Source of the DNA: Eubacteriales bacterium
GTDB lineage: Bacteria; Bacillota; Clostridia; Oscillospirales; CAG-272
Reading direction: 5' to 3'
Length of the DNA stretch: 64,000 bases
Assembly: GCA_045124505.1 (NCBI GenBank)
Contig: JBGVLZ010000039.1
Coordinates: forward strand, 23,110-87,109
Below are positions 19,037 to 54,339 of the stretch, piece by piece. A program made the translations under genes and the position numbers. Numbering within the stretch: the stretch's first letter is position 1; every line of letters begins with the position of its first letter. The notes under the pieces were generated by a model. That model did no database searches. It saw nothing but the letters and a program-made list of their open reading frames with translations, and had not been told where the DNA came from.

Positions 19037-19597
19037 CTATTCTTCTGTGTATAATTCGTCATAGTACCAGCGAATGGGATTTTCATATATGTATTTTATA
19101 TGTTCTTCGTAGTCATCACGGTTACGTATAATATGGTCGTAAAAACGAGGTTGCCAAATGTTGCAGCCGTATTCTTTGTTGCAAAAGCGCTTAAACGTGG
19201 ATACAAATTGCGAGCAGGCGGCGTTTGCCCTTTTGACATTTGTAGGGACAGGCGTCCTCGACTGTCCGTTATCGGTCACATTATTTTCCGTTACGCAAAG
19301 CAAAAGGTGAATATGGTTAGGCATTATCACGTAATATTCAACCGATAAATGATTATAGAAATTATTAAATTGTTTGATGTATTTTTCTGCAATTTTTCCA
19401 TATTCAGTCAATTCGGTTTTCGGACAGTCGAGGACGCCTGTCCCTACTATCTGCGAGAGAGTACACCTTTTGTTTTGTGTACAAATCGTTATAAAATATG
19501 CGCCAACCGTGCTGTAATCAAAATTTTTGAGTCTTATAGCCTTCCTTTTCGGAAATTCTTTTTCTTTATCCATTTTATCCACTGCATCATATAACAC
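19037..19597 (-). CDS. RayT-like HUH Y1 transposase (IS200-like, REP-associated tyrosine transposase family)
   Basis: GAYFITICT N-terminal motif, HUH motif PNHIHLLL, catalytic Tyr region FYDHIIRNRDDYEEHIKYIYENP. The start may be the internal MDKEKE. Confidence 0.75.
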   Translation of the reverse strand: MLYDAVDKMDKEKEFPKRKAIRLKNFDYSTVGAYFITICTQNKRCTLSQIVGTGVLDCPKTELTEYGKIAEKYIKQFNNFYNHLSVEYYVIMPNHIHLLLCVTENNVTDNGQSRTPVPTNVKRANAACSQFVSTFKRFCNKEYGCNIWQPRFYDHIIRNRDDYEEHIKYIYENPIRWYYDELYTEE

Positions 19598-23867: not shown

Positions 23868-23995
23868 TAATGCCTGCCCTGTCCTTTTGCCTGAGAGATT
23901 CGGCTGTAGCCTTGCACCTTCGGCACCCGCACGGCTTGCGGGATTCTCCAGAGCCTCCTCCGCCTTCGGTTTGCAAAATCCCAAAGGTTTCAACG
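23868..23995 (-). promoter_or_regulatory. glycine riboswitch (one complete aptamer plus a partial upstream aptamer-like segment)
   Basis: Minus strand reads CUCUGGAGAAUCCCGCAAGCCGUGCGGGUGCCGAAGGUGCAAGGCUACAGCCGAAUCUCUCAGGCAAAAGGACAGGG. This matches the conserved GGAGA...CCGAAGG.GCAA...CUCAGGCAAAAGGAC signature. A second ACCGAAGG lies upstream. Confidence 0.8.
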
Positions 23996-28166: not shown

Positions 28167-28174
28167 ATAAGACA

Positions 28175-28204
28175 AAAGAGAGAACGCAAATTCTCTCTTT
28201 TTGT
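28175..28204 (+). terminator. terminator of the hyd operon
   Basis: AAAGAGAGAA-CGCAAA-TTCTCTCTTT followed by TTGTT. Confidence 0.75.
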
Positions 28205-28254
28205 TATTCACATAACTCATCACAATACCTCCGCATCGTGTTTTCATAAATGTA

Positions 28255-28328
28255 TTTCCGTAGGAAATATGCGCCCTTTGTCTGCGGGCAGTCGGCAAGC
28301 CGACTGTGGGGGGCGCAGACAGGGCGCC
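28255..28328 (+). repeat. nested-palindrome repeat, copy A
   Basis: TTTCC-GTA-GGAAA, then TAT, then GCGCCCT..GTCTGCG..CAG-[TCGGC-AA-GCCGA]-CTG..CGCAGAC-AGGGCGC. Confidence 0.8.
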
Positions 28329-28387
28329 GTCACCGTAAAGATTCAGATTAAGCACGGATTCTGTTTTACGTGCATGCTATTATTGTA

Positions 28388-29293
28388 TTATGCTATTTTC
28401 GCCAAAAGCTCGCTGAATGCAAGGATAAGAAGTGCGCAAAGGGCAATTATCATACCGACAAGACGGCGTCCGCTTACCTTTTCACGGAATAAAGTCATAG
28501 CAACCACGACTGACATCATCGTTGTACCGCCGTTTTGTATCGGGAATAATACTGCGCTGTCAAGCACACCCGAAAGATAGAGGTTGACTTTATTAAGAAA
28601 TGCTATAAATGCACCGCAAACAACCGTCAAAAGGATAAGTTTTTTTGTATCAATACCGCTTTCGCTTGATTTTTCTGTTTTATTTCTTGAGCTTATAAGA
28701 TAGCTTACTGTACAAAGGACTGCCGCAGATACAAAGGCAATCGCAAGAAATGCACCCGTTTCGGAAGCGAATGAGGACTTCTGCTGCGTTTTTTGCATAA
28801 TACCGATAGAGCCCATGAAAAGGAACGCCAAGAAGCAGAAGATAAGCCATTTTGCACTTGTCCCCTTGCCGTCCTTTTTCTTCTCCGTTGAAAAATATGC
28901 GGCGACTATCATAAGAAACGTGCCGACTATCTTCCACACCGACAGCGATTCATCCCAGATGATATATCCCGAAAATGCGGGAAGTATCATTGATGAGGTG
29001 ATAAGCAAAATGGTGAACGACATCGGTCCGCAGTTAAGCGCATTAAGCTTAAAAATACCGCTGAGTGCCGTCACAGCACCGAATGCAATACCGAATAAAA
29101 CCGTAAAAAGCGATGCTTTGAAGCCTGAAAAAATACTGATAGCAACAAGAATGACCGCCGCAACAGAATAAATACACATATTTATTTTGTAATTATCGGA
29201 TCTTTCCTTGACCGCCTTTTTACCGAAATAATTATAAAATGACGAATACGCCACATTAGCGCATACAGAAAGTGCGAGCAAAAAATAATTCAT
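28388..29293 (-). CDS. 10-TM EamA/DMT-like transporter (tentative)
   Basis: 301 aa, two 5-TM halves separated by a KKKDGKG loop. Confidence 0.5.
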   Translation of the reverse strand: MNYFLLALSVCANVAYSSFYNYFGKKAVKERSDNYKINMCIYSVAAVILVAISIFSGFKASLFTVLFGIAFGAVTALSGIFKLNALNCGPMSFTILLITSSMILPAFSGYIIWDESLSVWKIVGTFLMIVAAYFSTEKKKDGKGTSAKWLIFCFLAFLFMGSIGIMQKTQQKSSFASETGAFLAIAFVSAAVLCTVSYLISSRNKTEKSSESGIDTKKLILLTVVCGAFIAFLNKVNLYLSGVLDSAVLFPIQNGGTTMMSVVVAMTLFREKVSGRRLVGMIIALCALLILAFSELLAKIA

Positions 29294-51789: not shown

Positions 51790-52788
51790 ATGATAAGATT
51801 TGAAGGATATGAAAGAAGAATCGCCGGAATCGAAGCTTGCATGGCTGAATACGGCATTAAGGATCTTGAAGAAGCAAGAGATATCTGCCTTGCAAAGGGT
51901 ATCAATGTTGAAGATATCGTTAAAGGCGTTCAGCCCATCGCATTTGAAAACGCTGTTTGGGCTTATACACTCGGTTGCGCTGTTGCAATCAAAAAGGGAG
52001 TAAAAAATGCTGCTGATGCCGCTGAAGCTATCGGTATCGGTCTTCAGGCATTCTGCATCCCCGGCTCTGTTGCCGCTAACCGTAAGGTTGGTCTCGGCCA
52101 CGGTAACCTCGGCGCAATGCTTCTGCGCGAAGAAACAAAGTGCTTCTGCTTCTTGGCAGGTCACGAATCATTTGCGGCTGCTGAAGGTGCTATCGGTATC
52201 GCAAGAAGTGCAAACAAGGTAAGAAAAGAACCCCTCCAGGTTATTCTTAACGGTCTTGGCAAGGATGCCGCTTATATCATCTCCAGAATCAACGGCTTCA
52301 CATACGTTGAAACTGATTATGATTTCTACTCTGACGAGCTTACAGTTAAGCGCACTATCGCTTATTCCGACGGCGAACGCTCCAAGGTAAGATGCTACGG
52401 CGCTAACGACGTTCTCGAAGGCGTTGCAATCATGAAGAAGGAAGCTGTTGACGTTTCCATCACAGGTAACTCAACTAACCCCACAAGATTCCAGCACCTC
52501 GTTGCAGGCACATACAAGAAGTGGGCTATCGAAAACGATAAGAAGTACTTCTCCGTTGCATCAGGCGGCGGTACAGGCAGAACACTTCACCCCGATAACA
52601 TGGCTGCAGGTCCTGCTTCCTACGGTCTTACAGACTCTATGGGACGTATGCACGGCGATGCGCAGTTCGCAGGTTCTTCCTCCGTTCCCGCACACGTTGA
52701 AATGATGGGTCTCATCGGCGCAGGTAACAACCCCATGGTTGGTATGACAGTTGCTTGTGCTGTTGCTATCGAAGAAGCAAGCAAATAA
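51790..52788 (+). CDS. uncharacterised GGGtGRT-motif protein
   Basis: SGGGTGRTLHPDNMAAGPASYG motif. Start set to MIRFEGY (GGAGGG SD, 7-nt spacing). The family name is recalled from NCBI annotation and has no known function. Confidence 0.6.
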   Translation: MIRFEGYERRIAGIEACMAEYGIKDLEEARDICLAKGINVEDIVKGVQPIAFENAVWAYTLGCAVAIKKGVKNAADAAEAIGIGLQAFCIPGSVAANRKVGLGHGNLGAMLLREETKCFCFLAGHESFAAAEGAIGIARSANKVRKEPLQVILNGLGKDAAYIISRINGFTYVETDYDFYSDELTVKRTIAYSDGERSKVRCYGANDVLEGVAIMKKEAVDVSITGNSTNPTRFQHLVAGTYKKWAIENDKKYFSVASGGGTGRTLHPDNMAAGPASYGLTDSMGRMHGDAQFAGSSSVPAHVEMMGLIGAGNNPMVGMTVACAVAIEEASK

Positions 52789-52802
52789 TCTGTAATTTAT
52801 TT

Positions 52803-52840
52803 AAAAGAGTCTTGGAATTTCAAGACTCTTTTGTTTATGT
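52803..52840 (+). terminator. operon terminator
   Basis: AAAAGAGTCTTG-GAATTT-CAAGACTCTTTT followed by GTTTATGTTT. Confidence 0.8.
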
Positions 52841-52846
52841 TTCCGT

Positions 52847-52919
52847 GCGCCCTGTCCGCCCCCCCGCAGTTGACAAAGTCAACTGCCCACGGACAAAGGG
52901 CGCATATTTCCTGCGGAAA
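52847..52919 (-). repeat. nested-palindrome repeat, copy B (inverted relative to A and C)
   Basis: Minus strand reads TTTCC-GCA-GGAAA, then TAT, then GCGCCCT..GTCCG..CAG-[TTGAC-TTT-GTCAA]-CTG..CGGAC-AGGGCGC. Confidence 0.8.
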
Positions 52920-52999
52920 TATATAATATTACCTTTTTTTTATTGACATAACGAAACTTTTGTAGTATAAAAATAGTAGGTACAAACAGGAGGATCAAT

Positions 53000-53890
53000 A
53001 TGGTTATTTCAACTGCAATTTCCATTATACGTGACCGTTTCGGAAACAAAAAGGCGATAAAAATGTTATCGGATGCGGGATTTAAAACGCTTGACTGTTC
53101 CCTTTTCGAAATGGCTTATTATGACAGCCCTTTCAACTCAGAAAATTGGGAAAAAGAAGCACGAGAGCTGAAGGCATATTCAGACTCACTCGGAATTACG
53201 TTCAATCAGGCGCATTTACCTTTCAATTTCAAGTGGAACGAGGAGGGCGAATGGGAGCGTTTCATCGGCCCTGCGCATTACAGAGCACTTGAGATCTGCG
53301 GAATTATGGGTGTAAAATACGTTGTTGCGCACCCTATACATCACATGGAATATCTCGGTCACGAAGAAGAAGTATATGAATACAATATGCGCTTTTTCCG
53401 CACGATGATACCTTACTGCGAGAAGTACGGATACAAGATATGTATTGAAAACATGTGGCAGTTCGAAGCGAAAACAAGACGACTCGGACACGATTCCTGC
53501 TCGCACATGGAAGAACTCATTCGTTATATCGACGGTCTTGGCGGAACGGAGCATTTTGCGGCTTGTCTTGACCTCGGTCACACAACGATCGTCGGCTTTG
53601 AGCCGCAGGATTGCATACGAAAGCTCGGTCATGAGTATCTGTATGCTCTCCACGTTCACGATAACGATTATATGAGCGACAGGCACGACCTGCCAGGTCA
53701 AGGAAAAATAGACTGGGAAGAGGTCTGCCGTGCGCTCGGTGAAATAGATTACGTCGGCGACTTTACATACGAATCAAGTAATTTCCAAAGACACGTTCCT
53801 GAGGATATGCTCCCCATATCGTTTAAATATATGCTCGACGTTGCTAAGCATCTTACAAACAAAATCGACAGCTACAGACCGAAAAAATAA
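53000..53890 (+). CDS. sugar phosphate isomerase/epimerase (xylose-isomerase-like TIM barrel)
   Basis: AP_endonuc_2-like metal motifs (VVAHP, ICIENM, LDLGH, LHVHDN). Confidence 0.8.
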   Translation: MVISTAISIIRDRFGNKKAIKMLSDAGFKTLDCSLFEMAYYDSPFNSENWEKEARELKAYSDSLGITFNQAHLPFNFKWNEEGEWERFIGPAHYRALEICGIMGVKYVVAHPIHHMEYLGHEEEVYEYNMRFFRTMIPYCEKYGYKICIENMWQFEAKTRRLGHDSCSHMEELIRYIDGLGGTEHFAACLDLGHTTIVGFEPQDCIRKLGHEYLYALHVHDNDYMSDRHDLPGQGKIDWEEVCRALGEIDYVGDFTYESSNFQRHVPEDMLPISFKYMLDVAKHLTNKIDSYRPKK

Positions 53891-53908
53891 ACTGTAAATT
53901 ATAAAATC

Positions 53909-53947
53909 AGCAGGCTCATTTTGAAAACGAGCCTGCTCCTTTTATTT
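53909..53947 (+). terminator. terminator of the isomerase gene
   Basis: AGCAGGCTC...GAGCCTGCT followed by CCTTTTATTT. Confidence 0.75.
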
Positions 53948-53956
53948 ATATTGTAA

Positions 53957-53976
53957 GACACCTTCGGCGTCCCTAC
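53957..53976 (-). repeat. REP-like unit (GTAGGG + hairpin)
   Basis: Minus strand GTAGGG-ACGCC-GAA-GGTGTC. Confidence 0.6.
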
Positions 53977-53984
53977 CGCCTATA

Positions 53985-54058
53985 TTTCCGCAAGGAAATA
54001 TGCGCCCAACGTCCGCAGGCGATTCGTATACGAACCGTGGAGGGTGCGGACAGGGCGC
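53985..54058 (+). repeat. nested-palindrome repeat, copy C
   Basis: TTTCC-GCAA-GGAAA, then TAT, then GCGCCC..GTCCGCA..[GATTCG-TATA-CGAACC]..TGCGGAC-AGGGCGC. Confidence 0.8.
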
Positions 54059-54339
54059 AACCGATAATACACGTAAATCCGCTTCACGTAAATGTGGGGC
54101 AGGCACGGGGTGCTTGATTTAAATATATCGTTTTATATTATAATTTTTGAAGACAAAAATCGTTATTGTGCAAATAATTTCCGTTTAAAGTACCATTTTT
54201 CGCACCCATGTTTTTACATATTTTAAAAACTGTATACAGAAGTATTAGGGATTGCTGTATCATTATTTATTTTTTTCTGATAGAATGTTATGGTAAGACT
54301 ATAAAAAGATCTCAATACACGAAAGGTGATAATTTATCA

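Follow-up and report, generated by a model that had tools for sequence, protein, structure and literature searches.

R1, a nested-hairpin intergenic repeat family of probable REP/BIME kind in one uncultured Clostridia genus

The window analysed here is a stretch of 64,000 nucleotides from the genome of an Eubacteriales bacterium (Oscillospirales, CAG-272; GCA_045124505.1, contig JBGVLZ010000039.1, C39:23110-87109 in the numbering used below). It holds three copies of a nested-hairpin repeat family, which was named R1. The copies had been listed in an initial annotation of the sequence. All three were verified and their folds checked, and the limits defined by a covariance model lay at most 3 nt from the coordinates given earlier. 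Each copy consists of a small hairpin (SH) and a long hairpin (LH) of nested helices, P1 to P3. Copy A (28252..28327, + strand; 88.9 bits to the R1 model) comprises the SH GTATTTCC-GTA-GGAAATAT and an LH with P1 GCGCCCT/AGGGCGC, P2 GTCTGCG/CGCAGAC, P3 CAGTCGGC-AA-GCCGACTG and the bulge TGGGGGG. Copy B is inverted (52847..52922, - strand; 96.3 bits), with P2 GTCCG(T)/(G)CGGAC and P3 CAGTTGAC-TTT-GTCAACTG. Copy C (53982..54058, + strand) has P2 GTCCGCA/TGCGGAC, P3 CGATTCG-TATA-CGAACCG with one A·C mismatch, and the bulge TGGAGGG. Read in a common orientation, the SH of these copies is (A/G)TATTTCC-N3/4-GGAAATAT. The LH interior is GG, then P3, then an unpaired 3'-side (T/C)GGGGGG, which is GGAGGG in copy C. 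The shared architecture described earlier was found in full, the folds running through SH, P1 GCGCCC(T)/(A)GGGCGC, 2-3 bulged nucleotides of the 5' arm, P2, P3 and the (T/C)GGGGGG bulge on the 3' side, and the matched changes on both arms of P2, a helix of 5-7 bp here, hold in all three copies. The central hairpins are self-complementary as claimed, with stems slightly longer than stated; their description as unrelated and hypervariable did not stand, since few recurring modules account for them. Folding z-scores of copies A to C ranged from -3.3 to -6.6 against dinucleotide shuffles, and the same fold was obtained on either strand.

Terminator-like hairpins accompany all three copies: a bidirectional one in the gap between the upstream gene and copy A (28174..28201, no strand assigned), one immediately before copy B (52802..52833, + strand) and one preceding copy C (53909..53937, no strand assigned). 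The position beyond a terminator proposed for every copy thus holds for A to C; genome-wide, a crude terminator scan found a terminator separating gene end and element on only 45 of the 85 sides facing gene 3' ends, at a median distance of 43 nt. The 103-aa open reading frame (ORF) at 28269..28580 begins within copy A and overlaps an opposite-strand gene of 301 aa, and its earlier dismissal as a read-through is reasonable. Directly after copy A lies the remnant of a right outer arm, CGTCACC GTAAAGATTCAGATTAAGCAC (28328..28355, + strand), without a matching left arm; this type of arm occurs in ~18% of copies. Copy C is kept at the orthologous site in three congeners (G009, G002 and G003). Downstream of it the 3' half of a fourth element, TGTGGGGCAGGCACGGGGTGC (54093..54113, + strand), persists as a relic, and an intact element occupies the same site in the congener G004. 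Elsewhere in the window, a glycine riboswitch aptamer was found at 23869-23961 on the - strand (Rfam RF00504, 62.5 bits).

In 5' to 3' order, the R1 unit comprises an AAAY flank, the SH of 8 bp and, directly after it, the LH, whose helices are nested as P1-P2-(P3-(P4)). Short forms lack P3 and have TGGGGGG as the loop, and long forms hold a fourth hairpin within the P3 loop. Conserved unpaired positions are the AAAY flank, the SH-LH junction (T followed by GCGC), the GG preceding P3 and GTGGGGGG following P3, the last being located on the 3' side of the LH apex. The covariance model was built from 22 copies. In this seed alignment, 93% of cells were paired and two-sided changes occurred in 17 of 29 pairs (77 cells), a value reached by none of 500 shuffles; moving the partner by 1-3 columns lowered pairing to 32-48%. 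Among 71 distinct copies from relatives, 96.8% of cells were paired and 22 of 29 pairs showed two-sided changes, although this alignment was fitted to the model and so favours the structure. All four helices covary, including the SH, whose arms take the forms ATATTTCC/GGAAATAT, AGATTTCC/GGAAATCT, ACACCGC/GCGGTGT and ATACCGCC/GGCGGT. The proposal that structure rather than sequence is conserved was supported by retained pairing and compensatory changes in both sets.

The pairing is almost purely of the Watson-Crick type. When 134 distinct copies were folded with G·U forbidden and single mismatches were counted where flanked by pairs, 3673 Watson-Crick pairs stood against 20 single mismatches, among them 3 G·T and 7 A·C. 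Functional RNA helices normally tolerate G·U on the transcribed strand. The search of R1 against Rfam gave nothing at or above the gathering threshold across the window and, for the stretch 52780-54120 with copies B and C, nothing credible at E values as high as 5. The absence of a G·U asymmetry, the near absence of mismatches, the unfixed orientation, the many copies beyond terminators and the lack of an Rfam match point to DNA as the level at which a constraint or a copying process acts. R1 looks like a DNA palindrome and not an RNA motif, with a strand-symmetric constraint. Of the structure in 'ssDNA or RNA' that had been suggested, the DNA-level part is consistent with the near-pure Watson-Crick pairing without G·T excess; the RNA-level part is not, and the orientation is unfixed too. 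The conserved one-sided bulges still confer polarity on the element.

The genome comprises 2.76 Mb in 124 contigs with 41.7% G+C. A covariance-model scan of the genome and its relatives, the check proposed with the initial annotation, recovered 72 copies in this genome and further copies in congeners. R1 was present in nine of 10 congeners, with 1, 1, 5, 14, 49, 49, 57, 61 and 72 matches, counts that are lower bounds where the metagenome-assembled genomes (MAGs) are incomplete. The 20 genomes that represented other genera in the family and order gave no match. An exact-pattern scan of 185,579 species genomes (GTDB set, one per species) detected true copies only in a few MAGs named 'Eubacteriales bacterium' or 'Clostridia bacterium', one of them from sheep rectum. 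The other exact-pattern matches were due to chance or to an unrelated Magnetococcales repeat with the same 15-nt SH. This multi-copy repeat, found at loci L004, L023, L028, L046, L060 and L079 of Magnetococcales MAGs, starts with the 15-nt hairpin ATTTCCGCAGGAAAT, continues with GCGCAGCGCGC and has no LH of the R1 type. The identical loop is odd, and the shared hairpin is probably a coincidence.

R1 is dispersed, intergenic and biased to gene 3' ends, and its copy number is very uneven across sister species. With a simple gene call based on codon usage (2322 genes, 86% coding), 71 of 72 copies were intergenic. Flanking genes were convergent for 26 copies, tandem for 40 and divergent for three, compared with 155, 629 and 206 in the intergenic background (chi-square ~31), so that R1 is over-represented in convergent gaps and under-represented in divergent gaps. 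This bore out the dispersed, REP/BIME-like character that had been anticipated (REP, repetitive extragenic palindrome; BIME, bacterial interspersed mosaic element). In tandem contexts, 26 copies were oriented with the genes and 14 against them (two-sided p ~0.08). No replication-strand bias was seen among the assignable copies (18:17 relative to the leading strand inferred from GC skew; 37 copies on short contigs were not assignable). Flanking direct repeats of at least 10 nt, as a sign of target-site duplication, occurred in 7 of 71 copies and 52 of 500 controls, which is no enrichment. A DDE-type miniature inverted-repeat transposable element was ruled out on this basis. R1 copies are likewise not the ends of a larger insertion sequence or transposon, because similarity between loci stops within ~350 bp of mosaic repeats.

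Copies of both orientations occur, spread across 25 contigs. Repeat hot spots were contig C24 (93 kb) with 18 copies and C14 (29 kb) with five; their BIME-like mosaics of up to ~350 bp interleave R1 with GTAG REPs and the linker CATCAC..GAATGAAAT..GGGTTT. In two inverted pairs the SH ends face inward and a single gene lies between the copies. The pair at 52847-54058 of the window encloses a gene for a sugar-phosphate isomerase/epimerase-like protein (53000-53890), which is absent at that site in G003, and the pair at C103:5939-6510 encloses a small helix-turn-helix (HTH) gene. Between this genome (G000) and G009, its closest relative, identity approaches 100% in the C103 unit and is 94-97% at other loci, which makes a recent exchange possible.

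R1 changes through module exchange among its copies, through the insertion of small GTAG hairpins into apical loops and through slippage deletion of the interior. The 'fully variable' core of the initial annotation resolved into a small set of recurring inner-hairpin modules (CAGTTGAC.., CAGTTCGC.., CAGTCC.., GGCGGCTCG.. and CAGTTTGC..), reshuffled among copies and, at orthologous positions, exchanged or lost. When SH, P2 and P3 types were cross-tabulated, most combinations occurred, which makes the family reticulate; the P3 ending in GTCAACT was combined with five different P2 types, and each of the two common SH types was found with nearly all P2 types. Since the SH and most P3 modules are confined to R1, the combinations reflect exchange between copies and not independently mobile modules. 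Independent mobility of the SH or P3 was ruled out on these grounds, the exception being the CAGTTCGC hairpin, which also occurs within a GTAG REP.

Twelve orthologous pairs with aligned flanks were compared between G000 and G009. Nine pairs were stable, with 14 substitutions in 732 positions of the copies and 90 in 2400 of the flanks. The length of the G-run often differed by one nucleotide. The interior was replaced or removed in the other three pairs. In G009, copy A retains its SH and flanks (13 differences in 300 nt), has a different P1 and P2 and lacks P3, and three pair changes between the two versions are matched on both arms. At C123:56087, P3/P4 differs and P2 is chimeric. At C103:115072, G000 holds a 45-nt short form and three relatives hold a 92-nt long form. 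Deletion end-points lie within short direct repeats such as TGCAGGCA and GGCAG. Hypermutability as a general rule was rejected, because conservation exceeds that of the flanks in most orthologous copies and interiors are replaced only episodically. At an orthologous C35 site, the SH arms are AGATTTCC..GGAAATCT in G007 and ATATTTCC..GGAAATAT in the other three species. The intergenic region of copy A exists in four versions in four species, one of them inverted.

Gains and losses could be read at some sites. At C28:22170-22208, G000 has a bare terminator, and G009 and G002 hold R1 between two copies of that terminator; loss in G000 through recombination across the 39-bp repeats is the simpler reading, as the more distant G002 is also filled. 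A search for clean empty sites with 26 junction models and 20 loci of relatives gave only C28 as a clear case, most spacers having been rebuilt with other repeats. Small GTAG...CTAC hairpins insert in apical loops, and P4 units within R1 are similar to them. In G002, the mini-hairpin GTAGTTCGC-TGTACA-GCGAACTAC of this type stands exactly at the centre of a terminator (contig C23, locus L162). The same terminator is a plain perfect palindrome with the arms GGGCGTGCA and TGCACGCCC at C123:24918-24971 of the present genome, direct evidence that GTAG...CTAC units land in hairpin apices. At C28:3000-3400, compared with locus L158 of G009, the SH and 5' end of R1 have been replaced by a copy of the downstream GTAG REP and linker; the junction lies at the 7-nt microhomology ATTCGCC, and the rearrangement resembles a template switch.

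The window also encodes a RAYT-like HUH/Y1 protein of 186 aa (19037..19597, - strand) with the motifs PNHIH, WQ and YIYENP; its gene adjoins no R1 copy. The protein matched NCBIfam REP_Tyr_transpos with an E value of 1.2e-17 and 64 bits, below the 80-bit cut-off, and the E. coli TnpA-REP structure 4ER8 with an E value of 1.9e-9. Inside the gene, a GTAG-type REP, GTAGGGACAGGCGTCCTCGACTGTCC (19242..19267, + strand), and its inverted partner (19422..19447, - strand) lie in frame, and the two are translated as GTGVLDCP and GQSRTPVPT. Eight RAYT loci were found in the genome, among them C24:45078-45560, C14:12803-13315 and C28:8906-9424, each with its own variant of an in-frame GTAG-REP pair, and RAYT genes were present in all 10 congeners. 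Quentin et al. 2018 (PMC6006769) characterise RAYT subclass 2.4 by NH[IFV]H, WQ, YIxxNP and in-frame REP inserts; among its REPs they describe 'double-foot' forms, which carry 5' GT[AG]G and 3' C[TC]AC. The hosts tabulated for it in that survey are Cyanobacteria, Bacteroidetes and 'various phyla', with no REP family described from Clostridia (PMC6006769). Judged by motifs and inserts, the RAYTs of this genome fit subclass 2.4. Group 4 of Bertels et al. 2017 is reportedly the same as this subclass.

The most abundant GC-rich repeat, to which the top GC-rich words belong, is the classical REP GTAGGGGCGTGCATCGCACGTCC (~60 copies). The RAYT paralog C24:45078-45560 has this sequence embedded in it, which suggests that the two are a cognate pair. 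At C14:12700-13900, a tandem duplication spans the N-terminal half of a RAYT gene, and its first copy ends prematurely at an embedded REP; one R1 copy lies ~50 nt upstream of the start codon of this first copy. Outer inverted arms of ~30 nt, GTTTCACTTAAAAGTTTAC ... GTAAAGATTCAGATGAAAC, surround 24 of 135 R1 copies (~18%), mainly those of the AGATTTCC type. GTAG precedes the left arm in two copies and CTAC follows the right arm in six, with clear GTAG...CTAC feet at C61:121157 and C54:8298. At C24:19001 the same outer arms enclose a short LH with the loop GTGGTGG and no SH. No GTAG was present at the LH foot, where the 5' flank consensus is AAAY and then the SH, and GTGG occurred only inside the apex. 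As a possible tag, CGTC followed the LH in only 7 of 71 copies. Across 31 genomes, RAYT presence and R1 copy number were not tightly correlated. The link between RAYTs and R1 is circumstantial.

Several known systems resemble R1 in part. Like the REP/BIME elements and RAYTs of E. coli and Pseudomonas, it forms dozens of GC-rich extragenic palindromes with a bias to convergent and tandem gene ends, with bulged imperfect stems, clustering into repeat mosaics, no target-site duplication and RAYT genes in the genome. Unlike REPs of 20-40 nt, the R1 unit has two hairpins and 45-100 nt, most copies lack the GT[AG]G foot, and every helix differs between copies with matched changes. Double-foot REPs come close, as the RAYTs of the host conform to subclass 2.4, long palindromes beginning with GTAG and ending with CTAC carry a minority of the R1 copies at their apex, and small GTAG...CTAC hairpins are nested in R1 loops and one terminator loop; however, feet occur in few R1 copies, and the asymmetric SH and apical GTGGGGGG have not been described for that class. 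REPINs, reportedly defined by Bertels and Rainey as inverted REP doublets, are likewise long, hairpin-forming and non-autonomous, with copy numbers that differ sharply between close relatives. R1, in contrast, joins an asymmetric SH and LH instead of two equal REPs, and it forms a modular reticulate set and not a near-identical cloud around a master sequence. Modules that are present, absent or multiplied, and insertions at fixed internal positions, recall the BOX elements of S. pneumoniae and ERIC/IRU with inserts, but the modules of those elements are linear and conserved in sequence, whereas those of R1 are concentric hairpins with covarying arms. With integron attC sites R1 shares a fold-defined identity, polarity given by extrahelical bases, a variable terminal structure and a position after ORFs; it differs in showing no integron integrase context, although no search for intI was made, in having no R/L boxes or ordered array and in occurring in both orientations. 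R1 would be a new structural variant of REP/BIME, tied to the double-foot REPs but without the GTAG foot and the REPtron arrangement. No Rfam family was matched, and two REP surveys describe no REP-like family from Clostridia (PMC6006769, PMC3733652). Literature text searches found no paper combining REPIN, RAYT and Firmicutes.

At a rough probability of 0.6, R1 is a family of non-coding palindromic DNA elements, confined to one genus and akin to REP/BIME, that spread non-autonomously through the action of RAYTs. It would spread and turn over as a folded single strand, acted on by RAYT-type HUH transposases, whose many paralogs in the genus are candidate trans-acting enzymes; the missing target-site duplication is as expected for HUH 'peel and paste'. 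Near-perfect complementarity may be kept because only well-paired copies serve as substrates. Template switching in replication, within and between hairpins, probably helps to keep the pairing. This process has been documented to alter both arms correspondingly in a single event (10.1101/2021.04.15.439925; PMC7202029), so that the templated fold-back hinted at in the initial annotation is a plausible contributor. Junctions with microhomology, and loops related as reverse complements (TTT vs AAA), are indirect hints of it, but fold-back alone cannot explain the shared asymmetric features. In an unlikely extension of the RAYT reading, GTGG, extended to GTGGGGGG, would be the RAYT tag, located apically in a loop or bulge and not at the foot. 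The apex would then be the landing site for palindromic modules, and R1 would grow concentrically by loop-targeted insertion with module exchange.

Several observations weigh against spread by RAYTs. At the hairpin foot, the GT[AG]G tag is missing from most copies. Seven of the eight RAYT loci have no R1 nearby, contrary to a REPtron. Genera that lack R1 contain RAYT genes as well, and in one congener eight RAYT matches stand beside a single R1 copy. No clean empty/filled pair with exact insertion boundaries was found, the best case being flanked by the 39-bp duplicated terminator, which is atypical for Y1 transposition. Finally, the orthologous copies are more conserved than their flanks, which could mean a function at the host level and not selfish spread.

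Such a function might be that of a structural DNA site, for instance a cruciform or a site for gyrase, a nucleoid protein or replication/transcription insulation, selected between terminator and promoter. The strand-symmetric Watson-Crick perfection, the location between terminators and the next promoter and the conservation of orthologous copies, about twice that of the flanks, would suit this explanation, and E. coli BIMEs bind gyrase and IHF. It is nevertheless doubtful: the conserved asymmetric bulges argue that one strand is read, 0-5 copies suffice in some sister species, whole interiors are swapped or deleted while the site is retained, and no candidate binding protein was identified.

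More doubtful still is a role as RNA in 3' untranslated regions, either as a stabilising or terminating stem-loop or as a decoy for a protein or the ribosome through the G-rich, Shine-Dalgarno-like bulge. Three G·T against seven A·C among the 3673 pairs give no G·U signature, the orientation to the gene varies (26 vs 14), terminators intervene at the 45 of 85 gene-facing sides, no Rfam family matches and sister species hold from 0 to 72 copies. These points stand against a strong gene 3'-end bias, very stable folds and the setting of copy A, which lies between the stop codon of a minus-strand gene (28388) and the bidirectional terminator and is probably transcribed. E. coli REPs are also known to stabilise upstream mRNA (PMC3733652).

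It is comparably improbable that R1 arose as a side effect of template switching during replication of GC-rich palindromes, with local origin and perfection and no enzyme mobility. The documented mechanism would account for the matched two-arm changes at orthologous sites (T-A to G-C in the SH of G007; copy A), for the microhomology at rearrangement junctions (ATTCGCC, GGCAG and TGCAGGCA) and for loops that may be mutual reverse complements, but it leaves unexplained ~70 dispersed copies sharing the SH, junction, bulges and GTGGGGGG, as well as SH and P3 modules found only in R1, and switching would also erase the conserved bulges. That R1 copies are attC-like sites, whose folded single strands a putative recombinase would use to move bracketed genes, is very improbable despite the conserved structure with bulged bases and variable apex and the inverted pairs around single genes (53000-53890 and the HTH gene on C103), as same-orientation arrays and R-box ends (GTTRRRY) are missing, the copies lie on 25 different contigs in either orientation and, by estimate, genes are bracketed on both sides about as often as chance adjacency gives.

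Knowledge of REPs and RAYTs comes mostly from Proteobacteria, and surveys also cover Cyanobacteria and Bacteroidetes. R1 addresses the question of how REP families originate and diversify. One uncultured gut/rumen Clostridia genus combines ~8 RAYT loci per genome, classical GTAG REPs and the layered R1, and events of gain, loss, swap and deletion are directly readable because related species span 0 to ~70 copies. If the apical-tag reading were true, R1 would be a self-nesting system of single-strand DNA elements that shows how REP diversity arises. If a RAYT acts on R1, the known substrate range of RAYTs would widen; if none does, R1 would be a clean natural case of hairpins maintained at the DNA level. 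Such maintenance bears on the debate over whether 'compensatory' changes must imply selection on RNA.

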